Shown here one piece after another: positions 9,410 to 45,143 of a DNA stretch of 64,000 nucleotides. Made by a program: the position numbers and the translations under genes. This stretch comes from Syntrophobacterales bacterium (GTDB lineage: Bacteria; Desulfobacterota; Desulfobaccia; Desulfobaccales; 0-14-0-80-60-11). The notes under the pieces were generated by a model. That model searched no databases. It saw only the letters and a program-made list of their open reading frames with translations, and was not told the origin of the DNA. The DNA is taken from contig JAILZL010000007.1 in NCBI GenBank assembly GCA_023512475.1, positions 7,697 through 71,696 of the forward strand, written 5' to 3'. Position 1 is the stretch's first letter; every line of letters starts with the position of its first letter.

Positions 9410-9428
9410 GCGGGGCGGCGCCTCAGGA

Positions 9429-12794: not shown

Positions 12795-14210
12795 TCAGAC
12801 CACATCCGCCTTGAGGAGATTGGTGGTGCCCCGCTGGCCTAAGGGGGTGCCGGCGGTGATGACCACCTTGTCGCCGCTCTTCAACCAGCCGGCCTTGAGG
12901 GCCTCCTCCTTCACCACCTGGAACATCTGGTCGGTGTCGGTGAGATTCCGGGCCAGGAGGGGAAAGACCCCCCAGGAAAGGGCCAGACGGCGCCAGGTCT
13001 CCTTTCGGGGGGTGACCGCAATGATGGGGGCGGCGGGCCGGAAGCGGCTGATGAGGCGGGCGGTGGTGCCGAAATCGGTGCTGGTGAGGATGGCCGCGGC
13101 CTGGAGATTCTGGGCCATCACCGCCGCGGCGTAGCTGATGGCGTCGGAGATGTCCCGGCGGGCAACCTGGGCCCGCTCCCGGAGCCAGGGGGCATGGGGG
13201 AAATGGGCCTCGATGGCCCGGCTGATGCGGTCCAGGTAGCGCACCGCCTCCACCGGGAACCGGCCCGCCGCGGTCTCCTCGGAGAGCATCACCGCGTCGG
13301 TGCCGTCCAGGATGGCGTTGGCCACGTCGGTGACCTCCGCCCGGCTGGGCCGGGAGTGGTCCACCATGGACAGCAGCATCTGGGTGGCGGTGATGACCGG
13401 CTTGCCGGCCCGGTTGGCGGCGGCGATCACCTGTTTTTGGATAATGGGCACCCGCTCCAGGGGGAGCTCGAGCCCCAGGTCGCCCCGGGCCACCATGAGG
13501 CCGTCCGCCGCGTCCAGGATCTCCTCCAGATTCTGTACCGCCTCGTGCTTCTCCACCTTGGCGATGAGGGGGATGTCGGCGTCCAGGGTGTCCAAAAGGC
13601 GCCGGGCCTCCAGGACATCGGCGGCGGAGCGCACATAAGAAAGGGCGATGAAGTCCACCCCCAGCTCCACCCCGAAGCGGAGGTCCTCCTTGTCCTTGTC
13701 GGTGAGGGCCGGGATGGACAGGGTGTGGTGCGGGAAATTGATGCCCGCGTGGGAGCGCAGCACCCCGCCGGCGATCACCCGGCAGGTGAGGGTGTGTCCG
13801 GTCTTGTCCTCCACCTTCAGCTCGATGTTGCCGTCCGCCAGGAGCAGGTGGGAGCCCACGGGGCTGTCGGCCACGATCTCGGGGTAGGCGACGCTGACGC
13901 AGTCCTTCTGCCCCACCCCGCAGACCGCGGTGAGGGTGAACTTTTGGCCCCGCTCCAGGGTGATCTGGCCCTCGGGGAATTCGCCGATGCGGATCTTGGG
14001 GCCGGCCAGGTCCTGGAGGGCGGCCAGGGGGCGGCCCAGATCGGCGGCCAGGCGGCGCACCTCCTTAAGGCGGCGGGCGTGCTCCTCCGGGGTGGCGTGG
14101 GAGAAGTTGAGGCGCACCACGTCCACTCCCGCCTGCAACAGATGGGGCAGGATCTTGCCCAGACAGGCCGGGCCCAGGGTGGCAATGATTTTGGTACGTC
14201 TCCGGGCCAT
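12795..14210 (-). CDS. pyk: pyruvate kinase
   Basis: MARRRTKIIATLGPA...VDVVRLNFSHA...KIRIG...MVARGDLG...TQMLLSM. ATG at 14210 is preceded by GGAGG. The longer track ORF adds a non-conserved 42-aa extension. Confidence 0.9.
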   Translation of the reverse strand: MARRRTKIIATLGPACLGKILPHLLQAGVDVVRLNFSHATPEEHARRLKEVRRLAADLGRPLAALQDLAGPKIRIGEFPEGQITLERGQKFTLTAVCGVGQKDCVSVAYPEIVADSPVGSHLLLADGNIELKVEDKTGHTLTCRVIAGGVLRSHAGINFPHHTLSIPALTDKDKEDLRFGVELGVDFIALSYVRSAADVLEARRLLDTLDADIPLIAKVEKHEAVQNLEEILDAADGLMVARGDLGLELPLERVPIIQKQVIAAANRAGKPVITATQMLLSMVDHSRPSRAEVTDVANAILDGTDAVMLSEETAAGRFPVEAVRYLDRISRAIEAHFPHAPWLRERAQVARRDISDAISYAAAVMAQNLQAAAILTSTDFGTTARLISRFRPAAPIIAVTPRKETWRRLALSWGVFPLLARNLTDTDQMFQVVKEEALKAGWLKSGDKVVITAGTPLGQRGTTNLLKADVV

Positions 14211-14439
14211 GGTTCCTCCGAGGCCTGAGGGGTGGGGAATTTCCCCCACCCTCAGGTGAGAAATTCCCCAACTGCCGGTGCCGACCGCCTTTTCCCGGCC
14301 GCCACCTGTTCCCCCTATTTTCCCATATCCCGGCAAAAATTTGTGAATTTTTTATTAAAAACCGGGCCGGCCCTTGAAATCACAGAAAGGCATGGTTATT
14401 GCATAAAAGCATTGCAAATCATCAAGGGGGAGAGCACTT

Positions 14440-14640
14440 ATGCCGCTTTATGAGTATCAGTGTGTGGATTGTGGAGGCGCGGATCTCCGGGTGGCCGGCC
14501 TGGATGATCACACCGCCATCTGTGTGGAGTGCGGCGGGTTGATGCTGCGGCTCGATGAGGACATTTTCCGGCCCTATTTCGAGGAGGAGGCCCCGGCCCC
14601 GGCCGCCGGGCTGCACAAGGTCTCCAACAATGGCACCTGA
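14440..14640 (+). CDS. FmdB-family zinc-ribbon protein
   Basis: 66 aa. MPLYEYQCVDCG...CVECGG (CxxC...CxxC) is the typical MP.YEY.C N-terminus. The RBS is aagggggag. Confidence 0.7.
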   Translation: MPLYEYQCVDCGGADLRVAGLDDHTAICVECGGLMLRLDEDIFRPYFEEEAPAPAAGLHKVSNNGT

Positions 14641-14663
14641 GTTAGGCCACCGGGGTTCCTGAG

Positions 14664-14693
14664 GAAACGGCGGCGCTCTCCGGCCGCCGTTTC
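14664..14693 (+). terminator. hairpin terminator after the zinc-ribbon gene
   Basis: GAAACGGCGGC-gctctccg-GCCGCCGTTTC is an 11-bp perfect stem followed by tgtt. Confidence 0.6.
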
Positions 14694-14811
14694 TGTTGGT
14701 GGGCAGTACCCCGGGCGACCGGTAGGGGGCGGCCAGGCTGGGCCCGCCTCAAAATGACAACCGGGGGCGCCGGGGACGGTGCCCCCTTTGTCAGGTTGGG
14801 AAGGGCACGGG

Positions 14812-15318
14812 TCAGTTGATCACCCGGCTGGAGGGGCCGGACAGCTCCCCGTCCCGCATAAAGTCCTCCAGAAACTCCTGTACGAGTCGGGCCAGGGCTT
14901 CATACAGGGGCTCCCAATCCGTCTCCCTCAGCCCGCTCTGCACCTCGCCCCGGGTCTCCCGGCACCATTTCAGGTGCAGGGAGGGGCCGAAGGGCCCCAG
15001 GGAGGTGGGCTGGCCATCCACAAAAAAGACCTCCAGGCTGAAGGGCCGGCTGCCGGCTCCCGCAGGGGAGGGGAGATGGACAATCACCCCGAGGCAGGGC
15101 CCGCCCTCCCACTGATCCGCGGCAGGGTGGCGTAAGGACACCCCCGCCAGGGAGAGGCGGAGCTCCGCTTCCGTCCTGAGACGCTCCCGATTGACGGGCG
15201 AAGGTTCCCGAGTGGCGGGGGGCGGGGCGATCCAGACCTGCAGCCCGCCGGATCCGGTCGGCCGGAGGCGGGCGGCTCCAGGAGAGGGGCACGGAGACAC
15301 GTCTCGGGTCTTTTTCAC
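14812..15318 (-). CDS. hypothetical protein (no family recognised); start uncertain
   Basis: The frame is open with coding-like G/C third positions, especially in the C-terminal two thirds (...FSLEVFFVDGQPTS...WEPLYEALARLVQEFLEDFM...). It lies downstream of the two-component pair on the same strand. Confidence 0.4.
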   Translation of the reverse strand: MKKTRDVSPCPSPGAARLRPTGSGGLQVWIAPPPATREPSPVNRERLRTEAELRLSLAGVSLRHPAADQWEGGPCLGVIVHLPSPAGAGSRPFSLEVFFVDGQPTSLGPFGPSLHLKWCRETRGEVQSGLRETDWEPLYEALARLVQEFLEDFMRDGELSGPSSRVIN

Positions 15319-15571
15319 CGGTCAGTCCTTCCGGAGGCTCGTCAACGGGGGCCGCCCGCCGCGCCCTTCTCGCCCCGGGCAGGGCCCCTGGGGCCCATCA
15401 CGGCTGCGGCCGTCAACCTGCCCCATTATGCGCTTCCCGCGTATCCGGACAATCGGGAGCCGCCTGATTTTCCTCGGGGAAATCCCTGAAAATCGGCTCA
15501 GGAAAGATATGAGTCCAGGGCCGGCAGGCGGGGGAAGGCCTTTCCACCCTCCGGCCCCGGGGAGGGGTGTG

Positions 15572-16225
15572 TCAGGGTTCCAGGGAGGTGAGCCCTTCCC
15601 GGATGGCGTACTTGGTGAGCTCGGCGATGCTGTGGATTCCCAGTTTGTGCATGATCTGCTGGCGATGGGTCTCCACGGTCTTGACGCTGATGTGCAACTG
15701 TTCGGCAATCTGGCCGGTGGGCTTCCCCTCGGCCATCAGCTGCAGCACCTCCCGTTCCCGGGGGGTGAGCATGGTGAAGGCGGAGGACCGGGGGGCGGAC
15801 ATCCCCTGGACATAGTCCTGGATGACCACGTTGGAGACCCCGGGGCTCAGGTAGGTCTTGTTGGCCATCACCAGCCGGATGGCCGCGGCCAGCTCCTCAA
15901 AGGCGCAATCCTTGAGGAGATAACCGGAGGAGCCGGCCTTGAGCATATTGACCACAAAGCGACGGTCGGCATGCATGGAGAGGGCGATGATCTTGGTCTC
16001 CGGAAAGGCCGCCAGGACCTGCCGGGTGGCTTCAATGCCGTTCAGATCCGGCATGTTGACATCCATGATGACGACATCGGGCCGCAATTCCTTGACGAGT
16101 TGCACCACCTCCCGGCCGTTTTCGGCCTCGGCCACCACCTCCATGTCCGGTTCCTTGGCCAGCAAGGTGGCCAGGCCCTGGCGCACGATCATGTGGTCAT
16201 CGGCGATGATGATCCTCGTCTTCAT
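15572..16225 (-). CDS. NarL/FixJ-family response regulator (REC plus LuxR-type HTH)
   Basis: MKTRIIIADDH...DVVIMDVNMPDLNG...LSMH... then REREVLQLMAEGKPTGQIAEQLHISVKTVETHR. ATG at 16225 has a GGAGGG RBS. Confidence 0.9.
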   Translation of the reverse strand: MKTRIIIADDHMIVRQGLATLLAKEPDMEVVAEAENGREVVQLVKELRPDVVIMDVNMPDLNGIEATRQVLAAFPETKIIALSMHADRRFVVNMLKAGSSGYLLKDCAFEELAAAIRLVMANKTYLSPGVSNVVIQDYVQGMSAPRSSAFTMLTPREREVLQLMAEGKPTGQIAEQLHISVKTVETHRQQIMHKLGIHSIAELTKYAIREGLTSLEP

Positions 16226-17990
16226 GGTTTCCCTCCGTGGAAGTCCCTTCGGGGAGGGGCGCACGGATGCGGACCGTGGTCCCTTCCTGCGGCCGGGAGC
16301 TGATCTCGAGGTGTGCGCCCATGTGTCCGAGTCGCTCCCGGATGCTGAAGAGCCCGAAACCTGCCATTGTGCCGCTTTTGCCGAGAACGTCTGCCACATC
16401 GAAGCCGATACCGTCATCTTTGATGTCAATCCACAGGTTATTATCTCTTTTGTCAAGGAAAATTTCCACCTTGCGGGCCCGGGAGTGCTTCACCGCATTG
16501 GTGAGCAGTTCCTGCAGGATGTGGAAAAGGAGCACCCGGTGCGCCTCCGGCAGCGGCGGCCACGGGGTGCCCCGGTGCACCGTCACCTGGAGGTGGTGGC
16601 GCCGCTCCACCTGCTCCGCCAGCCAGGCCACCGCCTCCTCCCAGTCGCCCTCAAAGAGGAGGGGCGGGCTCAGTTTGGAGGTCAAGGCCCGGCTGGCGGC
16701 GATGGCCTCCTCCAGAAAGGCCAGGGCCTCCCGCACTTCCTGGTCCCGGCCCTCCCAGGCCAGGGCCTCCTTGAGGGCGGAGAGCCTCATCTTGGCCAAG
16801 GCCAGGGGCTGACTCACCTGGTCGTGCAGATCCACCGCCAGGCTGCGGCGCTCCCGCTCCTCGGTCAAGGAGAGCTCCGCCGCCAGGGAGCGCAGCCGCT
16901 CCTGGTAAGACTCCAGCGTAGCCTGGGCTTCCTTCTGGGAGGTGATGTCCTCCACCATGCCCACCAGGAGGAGGGGGCCATCAGGGTCCGGGCGCACCGC
17001 CGCGGTATGCACCCGGGTCCACAGGAGACGGAAGTCCTTGCGGATGAAGCGGGCCTCCCGCACATATCCCCGGCGGCGTCCCTCCCGGAGCTCCTGAAAC
17101 AGCCGCCGCCGCTCCGCCACGTCCTCGGGGTGCAGCAGATCCTCGGTGGTGAAGCGGCATAGCTCCTCCTGCGGGTAGCCCAGCATGTTGATCAGGGCGG
17201 CGTTGACCTCCAGGCCCTTGCCGTCCAGCTCCATGAGACCGATGCCGATGGGGGCGTTCTCAAAGATGGTGCGGAAGCGGGCCTCGCTCTGTCGTAAAGC
17301 TGCCTCCGCCCGGCGGCGGGCGGTGATGTCCCGGGCGATGACCAGGACCGCCGGCCGGCCGTGATAGAGGAGCCGGACCGCGGCGGTCTCCACCTCCACC
17401 ACGCCGCCGTCCCGGCGCTTAAGCTGAAGCTCCTGGCGGGGGACCTCCCCCGTGCCCTCCAGGACCTGGCGGATGCGCTCCTGAGCCAGCTCCCGGTAAG
17501 CCGGCGCCACGACCTCCAGCACCTCCCGGCCTACCAGTTCCTCCGGGGTGTCTGCCCCCAGCATCCGGGCGGCCGCCGGGTTGAGGAAGACGAAGCGGCC
17601 GTCCTGATGCAGGGCGATAGCGTCCGGCGACAGCTCCACCAGCCGGCGGTAGCGTGCCTCGCAATCCCGCAGGCGTGCCTCGGCCTGGGAGAGGGTCTCC
17701 CGGGCCGCCAGGCTCTCCTGCCGCAGCTGGAGGCATTCCTGCACCGCGGACTGGGACCGGCGGACAAAGAGGAAGGAGAGCCCGGCTCCCATGATGGCCG
17801 CGGCGGCCACTGTCAGGGCGTGCACCCCCATAAAAGTCAACTGGGGACAGAAGGCGTGGTTGGCGACTTCCACCAACGAGAGGACAGTCAGGAGAGCCAG
17901 GGCCCACAGAAGCGGTTGCAGCCGAAATCCCGGGGAGCAGTACTCCGGCCAGCCCGGCGGTTGCTCCCCTCCTTCCCAGCGTGCGGCCAT
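16197..17990 (-). CDS. sensor histidine kinase: 2 TM segments, two PAS-like regions, HisKA_3-type dimerisation domain, HATPase
   Basis: 597 aa. It has the H-box ...LAVDLHDQVSQPL, the N/G boxes ...LTNAVKHS...DDGIGF...GFGLFSIRERL, and two PAS-like segments. The 3' end overlaps the regulator start by 29 nt. Confidence 0.85.
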   Translation of the reverse strand: MAARWEGGEQPPGWPEYCSPGFRLQPLLWALALLTVLSLVEVANHAFCPQLTFMGVHALTVAAAAIMGAGLSFLFVRRSQSAVQECLQLRQESLAARETLSQAEARLRDCEARYRRLVELSPDAIALHQDGRFVFLNPAAARMLGADTPEELVGREVLEVVAPAYRELAQERIRQVLEGTGEVPRQELQLKRRDGGVVEVETAAVRLLYHGRPAVLVIARDITARRRAEAALRQSEARFRTIFENAPIGIGLMELDGKGLEVNAALINMLGYPQEELCRFTTEDLLHPEDVAERRRLFQELREGRRRGYVREARFIRKDFRLLWTRVHTAAVRPDPDGPLLLVGMVEDITSQKEAQATLESYQERLRSLAAELSLTEERERRSLAVDLHDQVSQPLALAKMRLSALKEALAWEGRDQEVREALAFLEEAIAASRALTSKLSPPLLFEGDWEEAVAWLAEQVERRHHLQVTVHRGTPWPPLPEAHRVLLFHILQELLTNAVKHSRARKVEIFLDKRDNNLWIDIKDDGIGFDVADVLGKSGTMAGFGLFSIRERLGHMGAHLEISSRPQEGTTVRIRAPLPEGTSTEGNHEDEDHHRR

Positions 17991-18322
17991 GGCGCCAGCA
18001 CCTCCGGCACGTTCTTACATACTGCAGCGGGGTGGGGGCTCATCCGTGAGCGGGACAGGTGCCAGACGCGCCAAGCCAGATCTGGCCGGGTATTGGGCCA
18101 TATCTGGGCGGGGGCCGGACTCCGGGAAGATCTTCCCGGGGGAATCACCCTCTCCCGGGCCTTTCAGCCCCGGGGTCGCAAGCTGAGAATCGCCCGAGCT
18201 GCACTCGGGCAGGACCTGAGGACTCAGCAGAATCATTATCTTAGTGTAACTATGCCATGGCGGACCGCGGCTGTCAACGACCTAATGCGGGGTCTCCCAA
18301 GGGCCCCAAAAGCCGGGAGGAT

Positions 18323-18352
18323 TTGGCGCCCCCGGGGGTTTTGTGCTACAGT
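18323..18352 (+). promoter_or_regulatory. candidate extended -10 promoter (TGcTACAGT) positioned for a leaderless transcript
   Basis: The -35-like TTGGCG is at 18323-18328 and TGC+TACAGT at 18344-18352. The ATG at 18359 lies 7 nt after the -10, and no SD sequence is visible. Confidence 0.35.
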
Positions 18353-18358
18353 GGCACC

Positions 18359-21265
18359 ATGGAGACCGTGGCCGACCTGCACCTGCATTCCCGCTATTCC
18401 GTGGCCACCGGGCGCCAGGCGGACCTGCCGCATCTGGACCTGTGGGGCCGTTACAAAGGGGTGACGGTGGTGGGCACCGGCGACTGCACCCACCCCCGGT
18501 GGCTGGCGGAGCTGACCGAGCAGCTGGAGGAAGTGGCCCCGGGAACCTATGAGCTCAAGCCCCAGGCCGCCCTGCCTCTTGACCTCCATGGTCCCTTCTG
18601 GGAGGCGGTGGAGCCGGTGCGTTTCCTTATCACCGGGGAAGTGAGCACCATCTACAAGCAAGGCGGCCGGGTGCGCAAAGTGCACCTTTTGATGGTGCTC
18701 TCCGGCCTGGAGGCGGCCCAGCGCCTCTCCCGGCGTCTGGCCCGGATCGGCAATGTGGCCGCGGACGGCCGCCCCATCCTGGGGCTTACGGCCGCCTCCC
18801 TCACCGAGCTCACCCTGGAGCAGGACCCCGACGCCCTGGTCATCCCCGCCCATATCTGGACCCCCTGGTTTTCGGTCCTGGGGGCCAAAAGCGGCTTTGA
18901 CTCCCTGGAAGACTGCTTCGGGGAGACCCTGAGGCATATTTACGCCCTGGAAACGGGCCTGTCCTCGGACCCGGCCATGAACTGGCGGGTGAGCGGCCTG
19001 GACCGCTTTGTTCTGGTATCCAATTCCGATGCCCACTCCCCCGAAAAGCTGGGGCGGGAGGCCAACCTTTTCCGCGTGCCTCCCACTTTTGCCGCCCTGG
19101 CCCGGGCCATCCGCACCGGGGAGGGTTTTCTCGGCACCCTGGAGTTTTTCCCCGAGGAGGGCAAATACCACCTGGACGGGCATCGCAAGTGCGGCCGGCG
19201 GCTCACCCCCCAGGAATCCCGGGCCGCCGGGGGGCGCTGCCCTGAGTGCGGGCAGCCCCTGACCCTGGGGGTGCTCAACCGGGTCCTGGCACTGGCCGAC
19301 CGGGAGGAGGGCTCCCCGCCCCCCCAGGCCCGTCCCTTCACCTCCCTTATCGGCCTGCCGGAAATTTTGGCTGAGGTTATGGCAGCGGCTCCCGGCAGCA
19401 AAAAGGTGCGGCAGGCGTATTTTCAGCTCCTGCAGCGTCTGGGACCCGAATTGGCCATCCTCAGGCACGGGCCCCTGGAGGAGGTGGCCCGGGAAGGGGG
19501 CCCCCTCCTGGCGGAGGCCCTGGCCCGGATGCGACGGGGCGAAGTCCGCATTGAACCCGGCTATGACGGGCTGTTTGGGAAGGTGCACCTGTTCACGCCG
19601 GAAGAATGGCGCCGTCTGCGAGGGCAGGGGGCTTTCTGGTCGGTGGCGCCGGCGGTGTCGCCGTCCCCGGGGGTCCCGCCGGCAGCCGGGCCCGCAGCCG
19701 AGGTGCCTCCGGGATCCCCGGCGGGGCCGCCGCAGCCCCTCCCCGCCCCCGCCGGCCTCAACGCCGCCCAGGAGCGGGCCGTGACCCGGAAGGGGGGCAC
19801 GGTGGTGGTCCAGGCAGGGCCGGGCACCGGCAAGACCCGGGCCCTGAGCCACCGGGTGGCGCATCTCCTGGCCTCCGGGGCGCCGCCCGGGAGTATCCTG
19901 GCCATCACCTTCACCCGCCAGGCGGCGGAGGAGATGGCCCCGCGGGTGGGCCAGCTTCTTCCCGGCCACCCCGGGGTGGGGGAGCTCTCCGTCAGCACCT
20001 TCCATGCCCTGGGTCTGCGCCTGCTCAGCGAAGCGGGGCTGGAGCGCCAGGTGGCCGACGAAGCCCTCCGGCGGCAGCTCCTCCAGGAGGTGGCCCGGCG
20101 GCATGGCCTGAAGCCCGCCATCCTGGAGCGCCGCTTCTCCCAGGCCAAGAGCCGGCCGGGCTCCCCGGACGGAGAGGGCCCGCAGGTGCCCCCCGAGCTG
20201 GGGCCCGCCTTTCGGGACTACGAGGCGGCCTTGGCCGGAGCCGGATTGTACGATTTTGAAGATCTGGTGGCCCGACCGGTGCGCCTGCTGGACAGCGCGC
20301 CGGACCTGAGGGCGGCCTGGCAGGGGCGCTGGCGCCACTTTCTGGTGGATGAATTTCAGGACCTCAACGGGGCCCAATATCGCTTCCTCTTGGCCCTGGC
20401 CGGAGAGGCCCCGGCGTCGCTTCTGGCTATCGGCGACCCGAACCAGGCCATCTATGGCTTTCGGGGTGCCAGTCCGGAGTTTTTCCGGCGTCTGCCGGCG
20501 ACGCGGCCCGACGCCCTGGTCATGCATTTTCCCGATACCTACCGGCTGCCTCCGCCCCTGCTGGCCGCCTCCCGGCGGGTCCTGCCGCCCGCGGCCCAAG
20601 GCGGGGCCCCGGAGGTGAGTCGGCGGCGGGGGGAAGCCCCCCTTCTGCTGCTGGAAGCCGCCACCCCTCTCGGAGAGGCCCGGGCCGTGGCCGGCGCCAT
20701 CGAGGCCGTGGTGGGGGGATTTCGCCACCACACCCTGCCGGCGGAGCACCGGCCGGCCGGCGGGGCGGTGGGCTTCGGCGACATCGCGGTGCTCTACCGC
20801 CTGCATGCCCAGGGGGAGCTCCTGGCGGAGGAACTCAGCCGGGCGGGCATCCCCTGCCAGCTGGTGCGGGAAGGCATGGGCCCCGACTGGGAGGAGCTGG
20901 ATCTGGCGGCGGCCCGGGTGAAGCTCCTGAGCCTGCACGCCGCCAAGGGGCTGGAGTTTGACTATGTGTTCCTGACCGGCTGCGAGGACGGGCTGATCCC
21001 CCTGAAGCTGGCTCGGGACGACCCGCCGGATCTGGAGGAGGAGCGCCGCCTCTTTTATGTGGGGCTCACCCGGGCCCGGGAGCAGGTGATTCTCACCCGG
21101 GCCCGGCGGCGCCGCCTGGCGGGACATCAGGGGCCCACCCGCCTCTCTCCCTGGGTGGCGGCGGTGGCGCCCCAGATATGGCGGCCGGCGGCTCCCCGCG
21201 GGCGGGTCCGGCAGCGAAGCCTCTTTCCGCAAGCCGCCGGTCCCCCGGGAGGCCCGCCGGATTGA
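18359..21265 (+). CDS. fusion protein: Endonuclease Q-like (PHP-fold nuclease plus Zn finger) N-terminal half and UvrD/PcrA-type superfamily 1 helicase C-terminal half
   Basis: N-terminal half: DLHLHSRYS, PAHIWTPWFS, NSDAHS, EGKYHLDGHRKC...CPECGQPLTLGVLNRV, GYDGLFGKV. C-terminal half: QAGPGTGKT (Walker A), LAITFTRQAAEEM, VDEFQDLN, GDPNQAIYGFRGA, LHAAKGLEFDYVFL, RRLFYVGLTRAR. It is one uninterrupted frame. An alternative ATG exists at 18257. Confidence 0.85.
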   Translation: METVADLHLHSRYSVATGRQADLPHLDLWGRYKGVTVVGTGDCTHPRWLAELTEQLEEVAPGTYELKPQAALPLDLHGPFWEAVEPVRFLITGEVSTIYKQGGRVRKVHLLMVLSGLEAAQRLSRRLARIGNVAADGRPILGLTAASLTELTLEQDPDALVIPAHIWTPWFSVLGAKSGFDSLEDCFGETLRHIYALETGLSSDPAMNWRVSGLDRFVLVSNSDAHSPEKLGREANLFRVPPTFAALARAIRTGEGFLGTLEFFPEEGKYHLDGHRKCGRRLTPQESRAAGGRCPECGQPLTLGVLNRVLALADREEGSPPPQARPFTSLIGLPEILAEVMAAAPGSKKVRQAYFQLLQRLGPELAILRHGPLEEVAREGGPLLAEALARMRRGEVRIEPGYDGLFGKVHLFTPEEWRRLRGQGAFWSVAPAVSPSPGVPPAAGPAAEVPPGSPAGPPQPLPAPAGLNAAQERAVTRKGGTVVVQAGPGTGKTRALSHRVAHLLASGAPPGSILAITFTRQAAEEMAPRVGQLLPGHPGVGELSVSTFHALGLRLLSEAGLERQVADEALRRQLLQEVARRHGLKPAILERRFSQAKSRPGSPDGEGPQVPPELGPAFRDYEAALAGAGLYDFEDLVARPVRLLDSAPDLRAAWQGRWRHFLVDEFQDLNGAQYRFLLALAGEAPASLLAIGDPNQAIYGFRGASPEFFRRLPATRPDALVMHFPDTYRLPPPLLAASRRVLPPAAQGGAPEVSRRRGEAPLLLLEAATPLGEARAVAGAIEAVVGGFRHHTLPAEHRPAGGAVGFGDIAVLYRLHAQGELLAEELSRAGIPCQLVREGMGPDWEELDLAAARVKLLSLHAAKGLEFDYVFLTGCEDGLIPLKLARDDPPDLEEERRLFYVGLTRAREQVILTRARRRRLAGHQGPTRLSPWVAAVAPQIWRPAAPRGRVRQRSLFPQAAGPPGGPPD

Positions 21266-21325
21266 AGGGAGGCGTGGCGGAGGAATATTGCCCGGGAGGG
21301 CCTGAGCAGGTGGCTGAAAATGGTG

Positions 21326-21444
21326 ATTCGGGGAAGGGGACAGGGGTCGCAGGCCCTGCCCCACCCCCAACCCCCTAACTGGGAGGTGGCGGCGCCCACT
21401 GGTAAAATCGGCCAGCCTCATCCCACCGGGGAAGGAGGTTTTCA
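21326..21444 (+). repeat. intergenic repeated element, copy A (downstream of the EndoQ-UvrD gene), ending in hairpin plus TTTT
   Basis: It aligns over its whole length with the reverse complement of 27566..27705. Shared blocks are ATTCGGGGAAGGGG, GGGGTC, CCCTGCC, CCACCCC, TGGGAGGTGG, GGTAAAATCGGCCAG, and CTCnTCCCnCCGG followed by a hairpin and T-run. Confidence 0.7.
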
Positions 21445-21630: not shown

Positions 21631-23643
21631 GTGGCACTCTATATCTCCGGGAGGGTGAGTCTGGTCGTGCGCGGACGGTTTCTCCAGGCCGGCCCAAGGA
21701 TGGGCGACGGCGCGGCGGCGGGGGGGCGAACTGCCGCCCCGGGGAGAGGGGTGGCCCTGCCTGAACCGGGCGGCACGCCGAGGCGGGACAAGCCGGCGCC
21801 ACACCTCCGTCCCGCCCCCTGGCTGGTGTGGCTGTGGCTCTGGCTGGGAGTGGGGGTCGCTCTGCCCCTGACGGCCGGGGCGGCGGTGGCCCCCGCTCCG
21901 CCCCTTACCCTGGTGGCCCTGGAAATTCAGGGGGCCAGGATCATCCCGGCGGCCCAGGTGAGGGAGCAGTTGTCCCTGGACCTGCCCTCCCGCTGGCCGT
22001 GGAAAAAGCCGCCGCCCTTCCGGCCCGAGGACCTGGAAAACGACCTGGAGCGGCTGAAGATCTTTTACCGCCGCCAGGGTTTTTATCACGCCCGCGTCAC
22101 CTCCCGGCTCCAGGTGGATGAAAAGGGACGGGTGCGGGCCATCCTCCAGGTGGAGGAGGGCCCCTTTGTCCGGGTGAACCAGATCAAGGTGGAGGTCCGG
22201 GAGCCCGGAGCGGACCTGGATTACGCCCAGTTGGCCCGGGAGCACCCCGTCAAGCCCGGGGAGCGGTTCACCGAGCGGGGCTATGACGAGCTCAGGGCCC
22301 AGTATGTCACCGCCCTGCAGGACCACGGGCACCCCCGGGGGCAGGTGAAGGGCCGGGTCTATCTGGACGAGCTGGAGAACCGGGCCGACATCCATCTCAC
22401 CGTGGATCCGGGACCCCGCTGCGTCTTCGGGGAGGTGCAGCTCAAAAAGGACGCCCCCGTCCCGGATTATCTCATTTTGCGGAAACTCACCTTCCGGCCG
22501 GGGGAGGCCTTTTCCTTCCGGAAGCTCTATGAGAGCCAGCGCCAGCTCTACGAGACGGACCTCTTCAAAAGCGTCACCCTGACTCCCGCCGAGGTGCCGG
22601 AGGCGGCCACAGTCATCCCGGTGGTGGTGGAGGTGCAGCGGGGCAAGCGGGGCACGGTCAAGGTGGGGCTGGGCTACGGCGACGTGGACCTGTTCCGGGC
22701 CCGGCTGGCCCTGAGGCTGCGCAACCTGGGGGGGGGCGGCCGCCTTATGGACCTGGAGGGGAAATACTCCATCCGGGAGAGCCGGGTCACCGGGACCTTC
22801 ACCAACCCCCAGTTTCTCGCCAGCCGGTGGGATGCCGTGGTGCAGGGCGGCTGGGTGGAATGGGACCTCCCCGGCTTCCAGGACCGGGCCTTTTTCACTC
22901 AGGCCCGCCTGGAGCGGGATCTCCCCTGGCGGCTGCGCGTTTATGTCGGGCACGGCCTGGAGTTCGCCCGCCCCTTCGGCATCCCCAACGAGACGCTCTT
23001 TATCTTGCGGGAAGCCCGGCAGGATCAGCTGTTCACCGCTTCCATGCTCCTGTTCGGGCTCAGGCGGGACACCACGGACCGGAGCCTGGACCCGGAATAC
23101 GGCCACATCCTCAGCCTGACCCAGGAGCTGGCCCTGGATTTTCTGGGAGGAAACCTCCAGTTCAGCCGCACGGTGGCCGAAGCCCGGGGGTATTACCCCC
23201 TGGGGCGCCCGGGGTGGGTGCTGGCCGGCCGGCTGAAGTTCGGGGTCATTGAGCCCCTCCAGGGCACCGGGGAGATCCCCCTGTTTCGGCGCTTCTTTGC
23301 GGGGGGCGCCGGCAGCGTCCGGGGCTACCGCTTCAATTACCTGGGACCCCGGAACGAGGCCGGCACCCCCATCGGCGGCGAGGCCATCCTGGAGGGCAAT
23401 GCGGAGCTGAGGGTGCCTCTGTATAAGGAATTTACGGGCGTGGTCTTCTTTGACTTCGGCAATGTCTATTTCCGCACCCAGGAGGTGGATCCGGGACAGC
23501 TGAAGTATGCCGCGGGCGGCGGGGTCCGCTATCGCACGCCCATCGGCCCCGTGGGGCTGGATGTGGGGTTTCCGCTGAACCGGCAGGATCCCCGGCAGGA
23601 TCCGGCCTTCCGCCTGCTTCTGACCATCGGTCAGCAGTTTTAG
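21631..23643 (+). CDS. tamA: Omp85-family outer-membrane protein with POTRA domains (TamA/BamA-like); start uncertain (21631, 21700 or 21751)
   Basis: It has a hydrophobic signal region (WLVWLWLWLGVGVALPLTAGAA), POTRA-like repeats and a C-terminal beta-barrel with GG..SVRGY and a terminal ...LLLTIGQQF. It sits directly upstream of tamB. Confidence 0.8.
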   Translation: MALYISGRVSLVVRGRFLQAGPRMGDGAAAGGRTAAPGRGVALPEPGGTPRRDKPAPHLRPAPWLVWLWLWLGVGVALPLTAGAAVAPAPPLTLVALEIQGARIIPAAQVREQLSLDLPSRWPWKKPPPFRPEDLENDLERLKIFYRRQGFYHARVTSRLQVDEKGRVRAILQVEEGPFVRVNQIKVEVREPGADLDYAQLAREHPVKPGERFTERGYDELRAQYVTALQDHGHPRGQVKGRVYLDELENRADIHLTVDPGPRCVFGEVQLKKDAPVPDYLILRKLTFRPGEAFSFRKLYESQRQLYETDLFKSVTLTPAEVPEAATVIPVVVEVQRGKRGTVKVGLGYGDVDLFRARLALRLRNLGGGGRLMDLEGKYSIRESRVTGTFTNPQFLASRWDAVVQGGWVEWDLPGFQDRAFFTQARLERDLPWRLRVYVGHGLEFARPFGIPNETLFILREARQDQLFTASMLLFGLRRDTTDRSLDPEYGHILSLTQELALDFLGGNLQFSRTVAEARGYYPLGRPGWVLAGRLKFGVIEPLQGTGEIPLFRRFFAGGAGSVRGYRFNYLGPRNEAGTPIGGEAILEGNAELRVPLYKEFTGVVFFDFGNVYFRTQEVDPGQLKYAAGGGVRYRTPIGPVGLDVGFPLNRQDPRQDPAFRLLLTIGQQF

Positions 23644-23870: not shown

Positions 23871-26800
23871 ATGCGGTGGGTGAAGATCCTGGTCCTGGGC
23901 GTGGCGGGGCTGCTGGGGCTGGCGGCCCTGGCCCTGGGGCTGGCCCTGAAAAGTGAAGGTGTGTGGACCTGGGGCGGGCATCGTCTGGTGGCCTTCGCCC
24001 AGGAGCGGCTGTATCCCACCCTGACTGTGGCCGAGGTGCGGGGGCACCCCCTCACCGGGCTCACCTTCACCGGCCTCCGCCTCACCGGCCCGGAGGGGGA
24101 GATTCTCCGGGCCGAGCGGCTGGAGCTGCGGTTTTCCTTGTGGTCTTTCGTCCGGCTGCGTCCCATCCTCTCCCGGGTGGCGGTGCATCAGCCTTTGGTG
24201 CAGCTGTGGTGGGAGCCGGACGGGCAGGTGAATCTGAAACGGGTCCTCAAGCCCCGGCCGCCGCCGCCCTTTCGCTCCTTGGATTTTCCCGGCCTGGAGG
24301 TGGTCAGGGGGGAGCTCGCGGTGCGGCGGGAAGGCCGGGTGGAGCGGTTCGGGCCCGTGGACTTCCAGGCCGCGGTGATGATCCTTAACCCCAAACGGCC
24401 GGAGCAGAAAATCCTGGTGCGGCGGGCGAGCCTCTCCTGGAGCGGGCCGCCGGGGCGCCTCACCTTGAGCGGCCGCCTGACCCTGCGGCCCGAAGAGCTC
24501 CAGCTCCTGGAGGTGGTCCTGAAACTGGACGACGACCTCCTGGTGCAGGGAAGTGGCCGGGGGTGGGGCGGCGACGCTCCCGGCCTCCGCCTGGCCCTGG
24601 AGATGGGGCCGGCGGCCCAGGAGAGCCTGCCGCGCCTTCTCCCCGGCTGGCCGGCGGCCTGGCCGCTGGCCGGCAGACTCAACCTGGAGGCAGGTCCGGC
24701 GGGAGGACAGCTCACCGGGGAGCTCACCCTGGCCGGCTCCCCCCTGACCCTGGCCGGCCGTCTCAGCCGGGAGGAGGGCGCCTGGACCTATGCCCTGGAC
24801 CTGGAGGTGCCGGCGCTGCCGGTGGAGTGGCTGCGGCCGTGGCGGCCCCAATGGGTGGCCCGGGTGGCCGACCTGCCGCCGCTGAATCTCCGTCTGGCCG
24901 GAAAGGGGACCGGGTTCAGCTGGCCGCCGGACCGGCTGGATTGGGAGCTCACCCTGGGGGCCGTCTCCTGGCGGGGGCTGAAGCTGGCGGCCGCCCGGGG
25001 GACTCTTACGGGGGATGCCCGGGAGCAGATCCTCGGCCTCAGCGGTCACGGGAGCTTCGGTCGCCTGAGTGCCACTTTGAAAGGGCCCCTCCTAACCGCC
25101 CTGAAAGGGGAGACGGATGTTCAGGTCCAGGACCTGCCACCGGGGCTCCTGGGGCTGGCGGCACCGCCGGACACCCGGGTGAACGGCCGCTTCCGGGGCA
25201 CCTTCCACCTCCCGGAGGGGGACGTAAGCCGCCTCACCCTGGCGGGGGAGCTGAGGGGCAGCGGTCGCTGGGGGGAGCTGCCGGTGCAGGAGCTCACAGC
25301 CCGGCTGGCCTGGGCTCCCCCCCGGCTGGAGATCCGGGAGGCGGCGCTGAAGGCGGCGGGGCTGTGGGCCACCGGACAGGGCGCCTTCAGCCCCCAGGGG
25401 CTGGAGGCCCGGGTGCAGGGCCAGCTGCGCGGCTCGATGCCATGGCTCCCGGGCCCCCGCTTTTCCCAGGCCGCCTTTGACCTGGCGCTCCGCGGCCCCC
25501 TCTCCGGTCCCCGGGCGGTGCTCACCGCCCAGGTTCAGAACCTGAGCGGGGGCGGGCTGGCGGCCCGGGGCCTCTCTCTCGCCGGCGAGCTGGAAGGATG
25601 GCCGCCCGCCGCCGGCCGGCTCGTCCTGACGGCCGCAGGCCTCACCAGCCCCCTGGCGTCCTTTCCCCAGGCCCAGGCAACCCTGCGGGGGGATCAGCAC
25701 CGCTGGCATCTGGAAGGCAAGGCCTCGGGAGAGGGCAAAAACCAGGTGGAGCTGGCCGGACTGCTGGAAGCCGGCGGCCGGCCCCTGGTCCTGACCCTGA
25801 ACCGGCTATCCTTCGGCCTGGGGCAGCTCGCCGGCCGGGCCCAAACCCCCGTCAGGCTGGCCTTCCTCCCCGGGGTGCGCCTGGAGCCGGCCGTCTTTCT
25901 CGTCAACGGCGGCCGTCTGGAGGCGGAAGGCCATCTCAGCGCGGGCCTGGTGAGCGCCCGCCTGGAAGGTCGGGACCTGCCCGCCGGGTTGGTGGGGCTC
26001 AAGGGGGTGCCCCTGAGGGGCAAAATCCAGCTCCGGGCGGGGCTGGGGGGCACCCCGGCCCGGCCCACCCTGACCGCCGCGGCGTCATTGACGGAAGGGG
26101 GGTGGGGGAAGCTGGAGGTGAAGCGGGCCACCGCCTCTCTCTCCTACGGCGATGGCATTCTCGGCCTGTCCGGGGCCCTGGAGGAAGCCCGGCGGGGCTC
26201 CCGCCTGACCCTGGAGGGGCGCCTGCCTTGGCGGTGGTCCCTGATGCCGTGGGCGGTGGGCCGCGGGGAGGGGGAGCTTAAGGTGGCCCTCACCGGGGAG
26301 AAATTCAACCTGGCGGTCCTGCCGGCCCTGACCCGGGAAGTGACGGAGGCTGACCTGCCCCTGGAATTTCAGGCCCTCTGGCAGGGGCCTGCCGCCCGGC
26401 CCCGGGTGCGGGGTTTTCTGCGCTGGACGGAAGGGTACCTCACCTTCCGGTTGGGAGGCGCCCGCTACCAGGTGGCCCCGGGCACCGCCCACCTGGAGGG
26501 CGATACCCTGACGCTGCCGGAGCTGGTGCTGGTGAGCGACGGCACGGCCCGGATCCGGGGCAGCATCGCCCTGGAGGGCTTCTGGCCGGGACAGTTCCAT
26601 CTGAGGGGGGAGCTGGCCAACTTCAAGGCCCTCTCCCGGCTGGGGTCTGAAGCCCGGGGGGAGGGCAGCCTGACCCTCACCGGCCCCTGGGAGGCCCTCC
26701 AGGTGGCAGGTCGGCTCACGGTCACCCAGGCGCTTTTCCGGCCGCTGTTCTTTGAGACCGGGATCTCCGAAGACATTGTGCTGGTGCGCCAGCGCCAGGC

Positions 26801-28510: not shown

Positions 28511-29323
28511 ATGATCCAGCCGTCGGCCGTGCCCGTGAACGCCGCCGGACGCTGTTACCATCTGAATTGCGGCCCCGGGGAGGTGGCGCCCTACATCCTC
28601 ACCGCCGGGGATCCGGCCCGCATCCGGCGGCTGGCCCGCCGGCTGGAGGCCATCCGGGTGCGGCGGGCCAACCGGGAATTTCTCACGCTGACCGGCACCT
28701 ACCGGGGCATCCCGGTGAGCCTCATGGCCACCGGCATCGGGCCGGACAATACCGCCATCGCGGTGATCGAGGCCAGTGCCTGCGTGGCGCCGGTCACCTT
28801 CATCCGCCTGGGGACCTCCGGCGCCCTGCAGGAATTCATCCGCCCCGGGGACCTGGTGGTCACCGCCCGGGCTCTGAGGGATGAGCAGACGAGCGCCTAT
28901 TATGCCGGCCCGGAAGTGGCGGCCCGGGCCCACCCCCGGGTGGTGGAGGCCCTGACCCAGGCGGCCCGGGAGCTGGGCGTGCCCCATCATGTGGGCCTGA
29001 CCTGCACCACCGCCGATTTCTACGCCGGTCAGGGGCGGGTGGTGCCGGGGTTCCCCTGCCGGGAGCCGGACAAGGTGGCCCGGCTCCAGGCCCAGGGGGT
29101 GCTCAATCTGGAAATGGAGATGTCGGTTTATCTCACCCTGGCCCAGGTCTCCTCCCTGAACCTCAGGGCCGGGGGCGTGTGTACGGTGGTGGCCCACCGG
29201 GTGACGGGGCAGGCCCTCTTTGGGGGGCGGCGCCGGAGCCGGGCCGAAGCGCGCCTGGTGGACGTGGGGTTGAGAGCCCTGGAGATCCTGTATCACCGGG
29301 ATCAGACGGGGGGTGAGGGATAG
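28511..29323 (+). CDS. nucleoside phosphorylase (PNP/UDP phosphorylase family 1)
   Basis: ...APYILTAGDPARIRRLA...EFLTLTGTYRGIPVSLMATGIGPDNTAI...IRLGTSGAL...NLEMEMS fits the uridine/purine nucleoside phosphorylase fold. Confidence 0.75.
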   Translation: MIQPSAVPVNAAGRCYHLNCGPGEVAPYILTAGDPARIRRLARRLEAIRVRRANREFLTLTGTYRGIPVSLMATGIGPDNTAIAVIEASACVAPVTFIRLGTSGALQEFIRPGDLVVTARALRDEQTSAYYAGPEVAARAHPRVVEALTQAARELGVPHHVGLTCTTADFYAGQGRVVPGFPCREPDKVARLQAQGVLNLEMEMSVYLTLAQVSSLNLRAGGVCTVVAHRVTGQALFGGRRRSRAEARLVDVGLRALEILYHRDQTGGEG

Positions 29324-29391
29324 AGGCTGCGGCCTCCCTGGGGAGCAGGGGAGGGATGCAGCCGGGCACGGATGTTTGGGGTGGCTGACCG

Positions 29392-30543: not shown

Positions 30544-30546
30544 GAC

Positions 30547-44358: not shown

Positions 44359-45143
<785 letters not shown>

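Follow-up and report, generated by a model that had tools for sequence, protein, structure and literature searches.

A gene encoding an endonuclease Q-like nuclease fused to a UvrD-type helicase in a Syntrophobacterales bacterium: a candidate nick-and-unwind DNA repair enzyme

The fused gene, its surroundings and its relatives

The window, by which we mean the whole 64,000-nucleotide stretch of a Syntrophobacterales contig (JAILZL010000007.1), carries at 18359..21265 (+) a gene of 968 codons and a stop, encoding an endonuclease Q (EndoQ)-like nuclease fused to a UvrD-type helicase; all gene features described below lie on this + strand. Translation of the window revealed no internal stop in the frame, in agreement with the single unbroken 968-codon ORF claimed in the first-pass annotation. 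The motifs quoted there were found in the translation: DLHLHSRYS (aa 6-14), PAHIWTPWFS (163-172) and SDAHS (223-227) on the nuclease side, EGKYHLDGHRKC...CPECG (aa 267-298) and GYDGLFGKV (401-409) in the Zn-binding and C-terminal parts of EndoQ, and AGPGTGKT (aa 486-493), DEFQD (664-668), GDPNQAIYGFRGA (692-704), LHAAKGLEF (motif V, aa 859-867) and VGLTRAR (motif VI, 901-907) in the helicase. The protein annotated for the Syntrophobacterales MAG, P0001, is 100% identical, and its NCBI gene model has 974 aa, with a start at 18341 (TTG) that precedes 18359 by 6 codons; an ATG at 18257 opens the + frame. The N-terminal Met of at least 90% of 111 family members falls in line with M1 at 18359, and we therefore preferred this start, the one originally chosen, over 18341. 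The opposite strand has a longer ORF that overlies the gene (18236-21421, 1061 aa). Since the homology searches, made with the + strand product, found homology on the + strand throughout, we attribute the minus-strand ORF to the G+C content of 68%. An AlphaFold model of the 968-aa protein had a mean pLDDT of 89.9.

We then considered the surroundings of the gene. A Pfam scan identified a PAS histidine kinase, tamA and tamB in the flanking ORFs, and the gene sits amid housekeeping genes (pyruvate kinase, tamA/tamB, valS and ftsK), with synteny to tamA-tamB conserved within the clade. The location is core chromosome. Across 83 loci, no neighbour of the fused gene was conserved; in particular, neither a flap nuclease nor a polymerase or ligase gene recurred beside it in the loci compared, which gives no support for a dedicated pathway. 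We found no homologue in 50,697 phage genomes and a single match among 72,556 plasmid records, located in a chromosome-like region, so that there were no true plasmid copies.

The first-pass annotation had proposed a survey of domain architectures, and in this survey the fusion of EndoQ with a UvrD-type helicase recurred. It was in frame in 72 of the 80 best of at least 597 EndoQ-like GTDB loci, in more than 12 bacterial phyla, and in 130 of the 150 closest 50%-identity cluster representatives. About 120 full-length homologues with an unbroken frame were found in Thermodesulfobacteriota (NCBI, JGI, ENA and Logan assemblies), and the species-level genomes with a fused locus include some that are complete and some from strains in culture, such as Sorangium, Streptomyces, Micromonospora and Acetatifactor. 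The fused form predominates among the EndoQ-like proteins closest to this protein. An assembly or frameshift artefact joining two separate genes might be suspected here, as low complexity and high GC content in the Pro/Ala junction make sequencing or assembly errors plausible, and the frames are interrupted at three related loci (L011, L022 and L078). However, the independent recurrence of the continuous frame in the homologues, best loci and cluster representatives just described excludes a frameshift or merge in the linker, effectively refutes this explanation and leaves it a negligible chance. The two-domain gene at 18359-21265 is genuinely single.

The literature presents EndoQ as an archaeal enzyme occurring in only 'a limited number of bacteria'. 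The first-pass annotation had likewise spoken of 'a few bacteria', which did not hold: EndoQ-like proteins occupy at least 597 GTDB loci and at least 1041 50%-identity clusters at E ≤ 1e-30, meaning that these nucleases are common in bacteria and, among the closest relatives, usually joined to a UvrD-type motor. The tree of the EndoQ domain broadly tracks taxonomy. A search of the searchable literature, whose reach did not extend to a 2017 family classification, found no paper describing an EndoQ-UvrD fusion, so the earlier description of the fusion as uncharacterised stands in that respect. The architecture itself may nevertheless have been noted before in that classification, since according to PMC5961232 three EndoQ families were distinguished by Shiraishi et al. 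2017 'based on the domain organization'.

The EndoQ module and the linker

A sequence search of solved structures matched aa 5-416 to residues 5-385 of PfuEndoQ (E 9e-51 to 5e-50), a match of the N-terminal half that is far above chance. NCBIfam TIGR00375 matched aa 102-409 with an E-value of 1.3e-39 and 136.7 bits, under its curated cut-off of 326.6. The AlphaFold EndoQ module superposed on 5zb8 and 7k30 with TM-scores of 0.89-0.90, and on 5zb8 the target-normalised TM was 0.90 with an rmsd of 2.6 Å. These results support the original assignment of the N-terminal half to EndoQ and indicate that residues 1-421 are a full three-domain EndoQ with PHP, Zn-binding and helical domains. By sequence, the fused clade is a divergent EndoQ subfamily, its EndoQ half being 31-35% identical to characterised EndoQs. 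Conservation was assessed in an alignment of 131 sequences, this protein included, in which the EndoQ halves of the relatives are 49-69% identical to that of our protein.

The PHP nuclease domain (aa 1-264; 18359..19150), delimited by the PfuEndoQ alignment, holds the metal ligands H8, H10, E94, H109, H165, D224 and H226, which correspond to Pfu H8/H10/E76/H84/H139/D193/H195; all seven are present in 131/131 family members. In PfuEndoQ, the lesion pocket is rigid, adjoins the active site and is formed by His139, Thr142, Glu167, Leu168, Gly169, Leu170, Asn191 and Asp193, with Trp144 as a wedge (PMC5961232). The counterparts here are H165, T168, E198, G200, L201, N222 and D224, with W170 as the putative wedge. 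H165, T168, E198, G200, L201 and D224 are invariant among the 131 relatives, N222 is kept in 114 and W170 in 112. Pfu L168 is replaced by an invariant Thr throughout the fused family, at a position where the PfuEndoQ main chain makes contact, and the substrate range could therefore differ. The Zn-binding domain (aa 265-329; 19151..19345), aligned to Pfu C249/C252/C268/C271, has the ligands H275, C278, C294 and C297, an H-C-C-C set compared with C4 in PfuEndoQ; His takes the first position in 129/131 members, and all three Cys positions are kept in 131/131. The C-terminal helical domain (aa 330-421; 19346..19621), aligned to PfuEndoQ 304-385, terminates in the GYDGLFGKV strand pair. With its catalytic residues intact, the EndoQ module is expected to be catalytically competent. 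The cleavage that characterises EndoQ falls directly 5' of dU, dI, dX and AP sites.

A disordered Pro/Ala-rich linker follows (aa 422-465; 19622..19753), with 14 Pro and 10 Ala among its 44 residues, as defined by pLDDT and alignment. AlphaFold pLDDT was below 50 across aa 424-462, and the region between aa 416 and 467 is unconserved across the family, with a length of 24-150 residues (median 58). The model gave no defined interface between the EndoQ and helicase halves (pTM 0.59), and a physical hand-off of the nick between them is therefore conjecture. Directly C-terminal of the EndoQ module lies the peptide GQGAFW (aa 422-427; 19622..19639; family consensus GQxxLF). A Q..[LMIAV][FWLY] pattern occurred in 74/128 distant members at a median of 15 residues past GYDGxYG (interquartile range 15-15), and GQGAFW may be a second, internal peptide of the clamp-binding type.

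The helicase motor and the C-terminal peptide

Domains 1A/1B of the helicase (aa 466-711; 19754..20491) were delimited by Pfam UvrD-helicase (467-711, E 3e-55) and by alignment to PcrA 10-383, and contain Q471 of the Q motif, Walker A AGPGTGKT (K492), TFTRQAA (Ia), DEFQD (II) and GDPNQAIYGFRGA (III). Domain 2A (aa 712-920; 20492..21118), identified by Pfam UvrD_C (E 2.7e-27) and alignment to PcrA 557-671, contains motif IV YR (R729), motif V LHAAKGLEF and motif VI VGLTRAR. Q471, K492, D664/E665, Q696, R702, R729 and R905 are each kept in at least 128/131 members, R729 in 131/131 and R905 in 128/131. By these motifs, residues 466-920 are an SF1A motor of the UvrD/PcrA type with motifs Q and I-VI intact. 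The nearest structures to the helicase half are PcrA, UvrD and Rep, and its target-normalised TM on UvrD/PcrA structures was 0.60-0.66. NCBIfam scores were 256 against a cut-off of 911 for PcrA, 227-237 against 965-1144 for UvrD and 224 against 951 for Rep; in sequence, the helicase half is a separate SF1A subfamily and not a UvrD, PcrA or Rep orthologue.

The alignment to PcrA skips from residue 383 to 557, leaving about 15 query residues against about 173 in PcrA, and this gap marks the site of the deleted 2B domain at aa 835-850 (VREGMGPDWEELDLAA; 20861..20908). The length at the 2B position has a family median of 140 residues and is ≤19 in 6 of the 131 aligned sequences, this protein included. 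Motifs IVa and V lie exactly 45 residues apart in 118/118 close relatives, and the median spacing elsewhere is 174. The four-subdomain 1A-1B-2A-2B layout is thus incomplete in this clade, where 2B is missing, and most other members of the fused family retain a 2B domain of about 140 residues. The first-pass description as a UvrD-type helicase held for the SF1A motifs and Pfam matches but not for a complete UvrD. In UvrD, the 2B domain touches the duplex ahead of the fork, and an engineered 2B deletion in Rep switches unwinding on and does not abolish it. Deletion of the autoinhibitory 2B domain in this clade suggests that the motor can work without an external activator. If so, the motor would be a natural Rep-delta-2B 'always-on' helicase with an invariant junction length, its regulation passed to the attached nuclease. 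We assumed, by analogy with UvrD, 3'→5' polarity of translocation and unwinding, with loading on the intact strand.

The C-terminal tail is otherwise unconserved and contains QRSLF (aa 952-956; 21212..21226), a candidate beta-sliding-clamp-binding motif identified by conservation and enrichment. Q952 and L955 are ≥90% conserved. Q..LF was found within the last 45 residues in 110/119 close and 88/129 distant members (68-92%), against a background of ~3% per 45-residue window. In 94/129 distant members, the terminal peptide, mostly QLSLF or QLDLF, lies ≤2 residues from the C-terminus; this clade has Q[R/K/P]xLF, with a basic tail after it, instead of the canonical QL[S/D]LF. QRSLF and the family QLxLF match the bacterial beta-clamp consensus and probably serve in clamp docking. 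Archaeal EndoQ binds PCNA via a C-terminal PIP box (PMC3820547; PMC8307549), which the terminal Q-x-x-L-F peptide of the fused protein would mirror. The first-pass annotation had mentioned neither the family-wide QLxLF ending nor the 2B loss, nor the core-chromosome setting with its lack of conserved neighbours and of phage copies.

Proposed mode of action and comparison with known systems

We propose that the protein acts in chromosomal DNA repair, with a flexible tether between two modules that are both catalytically competent. Our best reading, to which we give a probability of roughly 0.55, is a clamp-tethered nick-and-unwind repair enzyme for dU, dI and AP sites; the incise-and-unwind idea fits the invariant catalytic residues in both halves. 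The range of substrates, the polarity of the helicase, the strand on which it loads, the binding to the clamp and the effect of 2B loss are inferred. The Q-x-x-L-F near the C-terminus would dock the enzyme on the beta sliding clamp, as the bacterial counterpart of the archaeal PCNA box. The EndoQ module would flip out uracil or hypoxanthine, or sense an AP site, and break the phosphodiester bond directly 5' of the lesion, to give a 3'-OH end and a lesion-bearing 5'-phosphate. The tethered SF1A motor (UvrD/PcrA type, presumably 3'→5') would be delivered to the nick held by EndoQ, load on the intact strand and travel away from the nick, peeling off the lesion-bearing 5' end and simultaneously recycling the nuclease. 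A 5' flap nuclease or exonuclease, a polymerase and ligase would complete repair. Archaeal EndoQ stays with the DNA that it has nicked and 'might recruit downstream enzymes' (PMC5961232), and the repair model of the EndoQ discoverers includes an unidentified helicase (PMC4357722, Fig. 10 legend), a step to which they assigned no protein.

Nick-initiated unwinding was weighed against two other modes of action. In one, the clamp-tethered motor moves on ssDNA at forks or gaps while EndoQ inspects and cuts, the helicase being a scanner or accessory replicative motor and not an excision helicase. Deamination is fastest in single-stranded DNA, Rep and PcrA are accessory replicative helicases, and the clamp-type motif suggests replisome association. 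Characterised EndoQs also cleave ssDNA as well as dsDNA (PMC6202378). A cut in a single-stranded template, however, would break the fork, a high price for a housekeeping enzyme that is conserved. Nothing in the sequence separates scanning from nick-initiated unwinding, with which it has most features in common; we consider scanning unlikely. The other would make the helicase half mainly a turnover device or regulatory ATPase that uses ATP hydrolysis to strip the tightly bound EndoQ module from the nicked product and passes the nick on to Pol I with little strand displacement, and the persistence of PfuEndoQ on nicked product (PMC5961232) would agree with this. Loss of 2B might also weaken true helicase activity in this clade. 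Such a device seems very doubtful, given that the translocation motifs are all strongly constrained, the 2B domain is complete in most of the family, and the engineered deletion in Rep activates unwinding.

A role in defence against phages or foreign DNA, in which the fusion would recognise uracil, hypoxanthine or unusual invader DNA, cut it and unwind it processively in a Gabija-like manner, appears equally improbable. Nuclease-helicase pairings are common among defence systems, and PADLOC matched the helicase half to GajB (most of the best matches) and other UvrD-type defence profiles (E 2.6e-67). A review also passes on the suggestion that Bacillus EndoQ may act in antiviral defence (PMC8307549). 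However, the best PADLOC stretches, among the matches listed, are confined to the generic helicase core (aa 466-919), the flanking genes are not defence genes, the housekeeping setting is syntenic within the clade, no neighbour is conserved, phage genomes lack homologues, the only plasmid-record match is chromosome-like, and the EndoQ-domain phylogeny is roughly taxonomic; a replisome-clamp motif also suits repair better. A Gabija-type system was rejected on the flanking ORFs, which include no GajA-like nuclease, together with the housekeeping neighbours, the absence from phages and the near-absence from plasmids.

More tentatively, and at somewhat under even odds, the fused protein may represent a widespread, unstudied bacterial repair route in which one beta-clamp-tethered chain recognises the deaminated base, nicks 5' of it and displaces the damaged strand with its own motor. 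It would supply the 'missing helicase' for alternative excision repair begun by EndoQ and would be a common bacterial form of EndoQ, perhaps the predominant one, with this clade carrying a natural 2B-deleted motor. The fusion is a 'Rosetta-stone' clue to helicase-driven strand displacement after EndoQ incision, and its terminal clamp-type peptide would link bacterial EndoQ to the archaeal enzymes and their dependence on PCNA. The natural 2B loss in one clade offers a ready test case for SF1A helicase regulation, and the hypothesis is directly testable in cultivable, genetically tractable hosts (Streptomyces, Micromonospora and Sorangium) and in cultured gut Clostridia.

Nick-and-unwind repair resembles mismatch repair and nucleotide excision repair in its working, not in family membership. 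UvrD peels a strand from the MutH nick in mismatch repair, and unwinding from a repair nick is a plausible job of the fused helicase too. MutH/MutL-UvrD and UvrABC-UvrD likewise place a damage-directed nick before UvrD-type unwinding, but they are separate proteins with a matchmaker, whereas the fused protein would combine recognition, incision and motor in one chain, with its nick predicted immediately 5' of a single damaged base. UvrD is recruited by MutL or UvrB, and the fused helicase is joined covalently to its own nicking enzyme. Compared with UvrD, PcrA and Rep, it shares all SF1A motifs and alignable domains 1A, 1B and 2A, but it falls far under the equivalog cut-offs and has 2B deleted in this clade; in place of the UvrD C-terminal domain it has the clamp-type peptide. 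In RecB, AddA and AdnB, which appeared among the structural matches, an SF1A motor likewise shares its chain with a nuclease. The nuclease domain of these proteins is C-terminal, of the PD-(D/E)XK type, and acts on DNA ends in end resection, whereas that of the fused protein is N-terminal, of the PHP family and predicted to nick at lesions, so that order, fold and substrate differ.

Archaeal EndoQ (PfuEndoQ PF1551, TkoEndoQ TK0887 and P. abyssi Pab0431; 5zb8, 7k30) has the same PHP/Zn-binding/helical layout, with all metal ligands and most lesion-pocket residues in common (TM 0.90), but is only ~35% identical and differs in its C4 Zn site and pocket L168. The fused protein has about 550 extra residues (linker and SF1A helicase) before the terminal clamp peptide, whose putative partner is bacterial DnaN rather than PCNA. 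The Bacillales stand-alone EndoQs (B. pumilus EndoQ and B. subtilis YqxK; PGAP 'endonuclease Q family protein') are bacterial homologues of ~390 aa that lack the helicase and the terminal Q..LF, are 31-34% identical to this EndoQ half and form a separate long branch. EndoQ activity has been shown for Bacillus enzymes, as cited in a passage of PMC5961232, and YqxK was enriched on AP-site DNA (PMC10220248). In Brevibacillus, the stand-alone EndoQ gene comes after a NUDIX gene.

Reading frame and domains of the fused protein

The first-pass annotation had described one polypeptide in which an EndoQ-like nuclease is joined to a UvrD-type helicase. Translation of 18359-21265 on the plus strand gave a single uninterrupted frame of 968 codons and a stop, and all the motifs quoted for it were found in their places. 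The open frame extends back to an ATG at 18257, and the NCBI model of the identical protein (P0001, 974 aa) starts at 18341, 6 codons upstream of 18359, at a codon read as TTG. Among 111 aligned relatives, at least 90% have their first Met at the position of Met1 (18359), which makes this codon the best start. For the fusion gene, neither a promoter nor a Shine-Dalgarno match was seen, and a promoter and terminator scan of the region gave nothing useful on the plus strand. The sole sigma-70-like promoter match in the region lies on the minus strand at 18249-18277 (TTGACA, 17-nt spacer, CATAGT, extended TG) and faces the PAS histidine-kinase gene at 16197-17990 (minus strand), which is located upstream of the fusion gene and divergent from it. 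On the opposite strand, a 1061-codon ORF (18236-21421, minus strand) spans the whole fusion gene and is longer than it. Since all the homology found, in searches with the plus-strand product, was on the plus strand, this ORF is probably a side effect of the base composition (68% G+C). At 18236-21421, a gene caller that greedily takes the longest ORF would choose the wrong strand.

The EndoQ identity proposed for the N-terminal half held in both profile and structure comparisons. Residues 5-416 matched residues 5-385 of the archaeal PfuEndoQ (PDB 5zb8, 7k30 and 7k31) with E values of 9e-51 to 5e-50. We built an AlphaFold2 model from a 111-sequence alignment (mean pLDDT 89.9), and its N-terminal half superposed on 5zb8 with a target-normalised TM-score of 0.90 and an rmsd of 2.6 Å at 32% identity. 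With limits taken from PMC5961232, the PHP domain covers aa 1-264, the Zn-binding domain aa 265-329 and the helical domain aa 330-421. Conservation was assessed over 131 aligned sequences, most of them single representatives of 50%-identity clusters. All seven EndoQ metal ligands were invariant in 131/131 sequences, as were the lesion-pocket residues H165, T168, E198, G200, L201 and D224 (residues as named in PMC5961232), and N222 was kept in 114/131. The single systematic pocket change relative to PfuEndoQ is L168 to Thr. In the Zn site the ligands are H-C-C-C, with His in 129/131, compared with C4 in PfuEndoQ. This half thus has all the structural and catalytic-residue features of EndoQ. Against NCBIfam TIGR00375 it gave an E value of 1.3e-39 and 136.7 bits, under the curated cut-off of 326.6, which marks it, at the level of sequence, as a divergent EndoQ subfamily.

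The C-terminal half matched Pfam UvrD-helicase at aa 467-711 (E 3e-55) and UvrD_C (E 2.7e-27). Among proteins of solved structure it is closest to PcrA, UvrD and Rep, with E values of 1e-50 to 1e-60 by sequence and about 1e-36 by Foldseek. The SF1A motifs are present, with Q471, K492/T493, D664/E665, Q696, R702, R729 and R905 kept in at least 128/131 sequences; the four-subdomain organisation is not. The NCBIfam scores were far under all the equivalog cut-offs for PcrA, UvrD and Rep, indicating a distinct SF1A subfamily that is no orthologue of these three. We hold the domain assignment of both halves with high confidence, and both modules look catalytically alive. The Pro/Ala-rich linker between them, also part of the original description, occupies aa 422-465 and was modelled as disordered over aa 424-462 (pLDDT <50). 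It is unconserved in the 131-sequence alignment and varies in length from 24 to 150 residues, measured from aa 416 to aa 467. The AlphaFold model places the individual domains confidently, and their relative orientation is not trustworthy (pTM 0.59), so that no conclusion is drawn on an interface between EndoQ and helicase.

Loss of the 2B subdomain, and two candidate clamp-type peptides

Alignment with PcrA skips from residue 383 to residue 557 over about 15 residues of the window protein, a gap corresponding to the 2B subdomain. The family median in this gap was 140 residues in the 131-sequence alignment, and only 6/131 aligned sequences, the window protein included, had 19 residues or fewer there. 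A typical family member, the homologue P0123, matched the complete UvrD_C model (positions 1-348). Motifs IVa and V were spaced exactly 45 residues apart in 118/118 close relatives, against a median of 174 elsewhere, indicating that the 2B deletion is fixed and maintained in the clade of the window protein. Rep without 2B is a more active monomeric helicase, and by analogy the natural loss of 2B suggests a motor that would need no external activator.

The otherwise unconserved C-terminal tail of the window protein contains QRSLF at aa 952-956. The clade form of this terminal motif is Q[R/K/P]xLFPE, and most other phyla carry QLSLF, QLDLF or QMSLF at the very C-terminus. Q..LF occurred within the last 45 residues in 110/119 close and 88/129 distant members, compared with about 3% of other 45-residue windows, and it lay 2 residues or fewer from the end in 94/129 distant members. 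In bacteria, the consensus for beta-clamp binding is QL[S/D]LF. In archaea, EndoQ has a PIP box at its C-terminus, binds PCNA and is stimulated by it (PMC3820547; PMC8307549); the fused family would have its counterpart in this candidate clamp-type peptide near or at the C-terminus. A second, weaker motif of the type GQxxLF reads GQGAFW in the window protein (19622-19639, aa 422-427) and was found in 74/128 distant members, at a median offset of 15 residues beyond the final strand of EndoQ. It is sited where archaeal EndoQ ends and has its PIP box, and it may be an ancestral relic or a second clamp contact.

Distribution and genomic surroundings of the fusion

A homologue search covering 5.8 billion proteins found about 120 full-length homologues (57-100% identity, 960-1024 aa) in NCBI, JGI, ENA and Logan assemblies of Syntrophobacterales, Desulfobaccales, Syntrophales and other Thermodesulfobacteriota. 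The protein with 100% identity carries the annotation 'MAG: UvrD-helicase domain-containing protein [Syntrophobacterales bacterium]'. We then scanned GTDB, one genome per species, with the EndoQ half alone, and at least 597 loci were confirmed. The best 80 of these came from Clostridia, Actinomycetes (Streptomyces, Micromonospora, Saccharopolyspora), Myxococcota (Sorangium), Planctomycetota, Acidobacteriota, Verrucomicrobiota, Bacteroidota, Chloroflexota, Gemmatimonadota, Binatia, Spirochaetota and Fibrobacterota, among others. A tblastn survey of these loci with the whole protein, the kind of architecture check proposed at the outset, showed that 72/80 run in frame into the helicase. Five of the remainder are genuine stand-alone EndoQ genes of the fused clade (L080, L081, L073, L060 and L046), and in three the helicase is out of frame or cut short (L011, L022 and L078); these could reflect gene fission, decay or sequencing errors. 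In L078, the frame switches a few bases after the end of the EndoQ match, and the EndoQ ORF stops about 10 residues past a QLSLW motif.

Searching a library of 50%-identity representatives with the EndoQ half gave 3698 matches at E<=1e-3 and 1041 at E<=1e-30. Among the best 150 of the 3698, 130 are at least 900 aa long, and most of the shorter proteins are truncated, with helicase motifs still present. Independent occurrence of the same frame effectively rules out a frameshift or merged-gene artefact, and the fusion is neither an artefact nor rare. In a rough neighbour-joining tree of the EndoQ domain, which is indicative only as it carries no bootstrap support, all fused forms grouped into a single tight clade (51-62% identity to the window protein) that stood well apart from PfuEndoQ (35%) and the Bacillales stand-alone type (31%). 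A few stand-alone relatives fell inside this clade beside fused proteins of the same taxon, which suggests secondary helicase loss and mainly vertical descent.

Directly downstream of the fusion gene and co-directional with it are tamA/Omp85 with POTRA domains (21631-23643, plus strand) and tamB (23871-27554, plus strand). A homologue with 61% identity, on a contig of 2.5 Mb, keeps the order fusion gene-tamA-tamB; tamA-tamB span 13056-18843 in locus L001 and 6459-12246 in locus L002. No functional link between the fusion gene and tamA/tamB is apparent. The exact NCBI protein has no genomic context on record, and the homologue P0029 was used for context. The rest of the window is core chromosome, with genes for pyruvate kinase, a GH57 branching enzyme, ValRS, FtsK, MoeA and a NuoF-like protein. 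Four long ORFs had no Pfam match at E<=1e-5, namely 60519-63500 (plus strand, 993 aa), 44337-46478 (minus, 713 aa), 29302-31443 (minus, 713 aa) and 7906-9507 (minus, 533 aa); they may be wrong-strand ORFs in GC-rich sequence or genuine unannotated proteins.

For the neighbour survey, we took 83 loci and clustered every ORF of 90 aa or longer. With the ORFs overlapping the fusion gene set aside, no conserved operon partner emerged, and no flanking cluster was present in more than 7/83 loci. An apparent UvrA-like cluster proved to be generic ABC-ATPase similarity. Inspection by eye identified an MGMT-like ORF, from its PCHRV motif, adjoining the fusion gene in only three of the 83 loci (L006, 3393-3890; L010, 3215-3781; L066, 7981-8370) and a UvrA-like ABC ATPase beside it in one Streptomyces locus (L059, 1411-3831), too few to call an association. 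The EndoQ half matched none of 50,697 phage genomes and one of 72,556 plasmid records. This match, L083 (NZ_CP011075.1, 489995-500738), lies on a 733-kb Brevibacillus laterosporus 'plasmid' among the chromosomal-type genes spoIIM, xerD, fur and mciZ, where a NUDIX hydrolase gene precedes the gene for a stand-alone 'endonuclease Q family protein'. The record may represent a chromid, or a piece of chromosome under a wrong label. The best stretches of the PADLOC matches listed lay only within the generic UvrD helicase core, and a known defence system was rejected on these matches, the lack of phage homologues and the lone, chromosomal-type plasmid match. Taken together, the context, neighbour survey, phage, plasmid and PADLOC results argue for a stand-alone housekeeping repair gene, not a defence or mobile-element function.

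Proposed mechanism and relation to known enzymes

We propose that the fused protein would work like EndoQ followed by UvrD. The EndoQ module would nick 5' of dU, dI or an AP site. After nicking, PfuEndoQ stays on the product, and a role in recruiting downstream enzymes was proposed for it (PMC5961232); the original EndoQ model includes a helicase step by an unnamed enzyme (PMC4357722). In the fused enzyme, such a downstream factor would be tethered to the nuclease. UvrD acts from a 5' nick in mismatch repair. By analogy, the motor, presumably 3'->5', would load on the undamaged strand and push off the 5' end that bears the lesion. This would release the nuclease as well and open a gap for a polymerase bound to the clamp. 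Domain identities, conservation, the tether, the 2B loss, the terminal motif and the genomic context are results of the present analysis; substrates, polarity, choice of strand, clamp binding and the effect of losing 2B are inferences. We give this nick-then-unwind mechanism as a whole a probability of roughly 0.55.

The protein might instead scan single-stranded DNA at replication forks, a reading compatible with the sequence, which we nevertheless think unlikely because cutting the template strand there would be hazardous. An anti-phage role is quite improbable, being disfavoured by the genomic context, the distribution and the clamp motif. The helicase could also serve as a mere ATPase for product release, but all its translocation motifs are strongly constrained, and we see little chance of this. 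The probability of an assembly artefact is practically negligible, as independent occurrences effectively refute it.

In PMC4357722, PMC5961232, PMC6202378 and PMC8307549, bacterial EndoQ is described as restricted to a few groups, and the enzymes characterised there are all stand-alone. A full-text literature search found no description of an EndoQ-helicase fusion. PMC5961232 credits Shiraishi et al. 2017 (Biosci Biotechnol Biochem 81:931) with sorting EndoQ 'based on the domain organization' into three families, of which two are bacterial, and the 2017 paper may already have noted the fused architecture. Fused sequences abound in public databases, where they are called 'UvrD-helicase domain-containing protein'. 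Given this abundance, the literature result and the family-membership results, we rate the fusion as an uncharacterised family of known kinds, of which the window holds a further, 2B-less variant.
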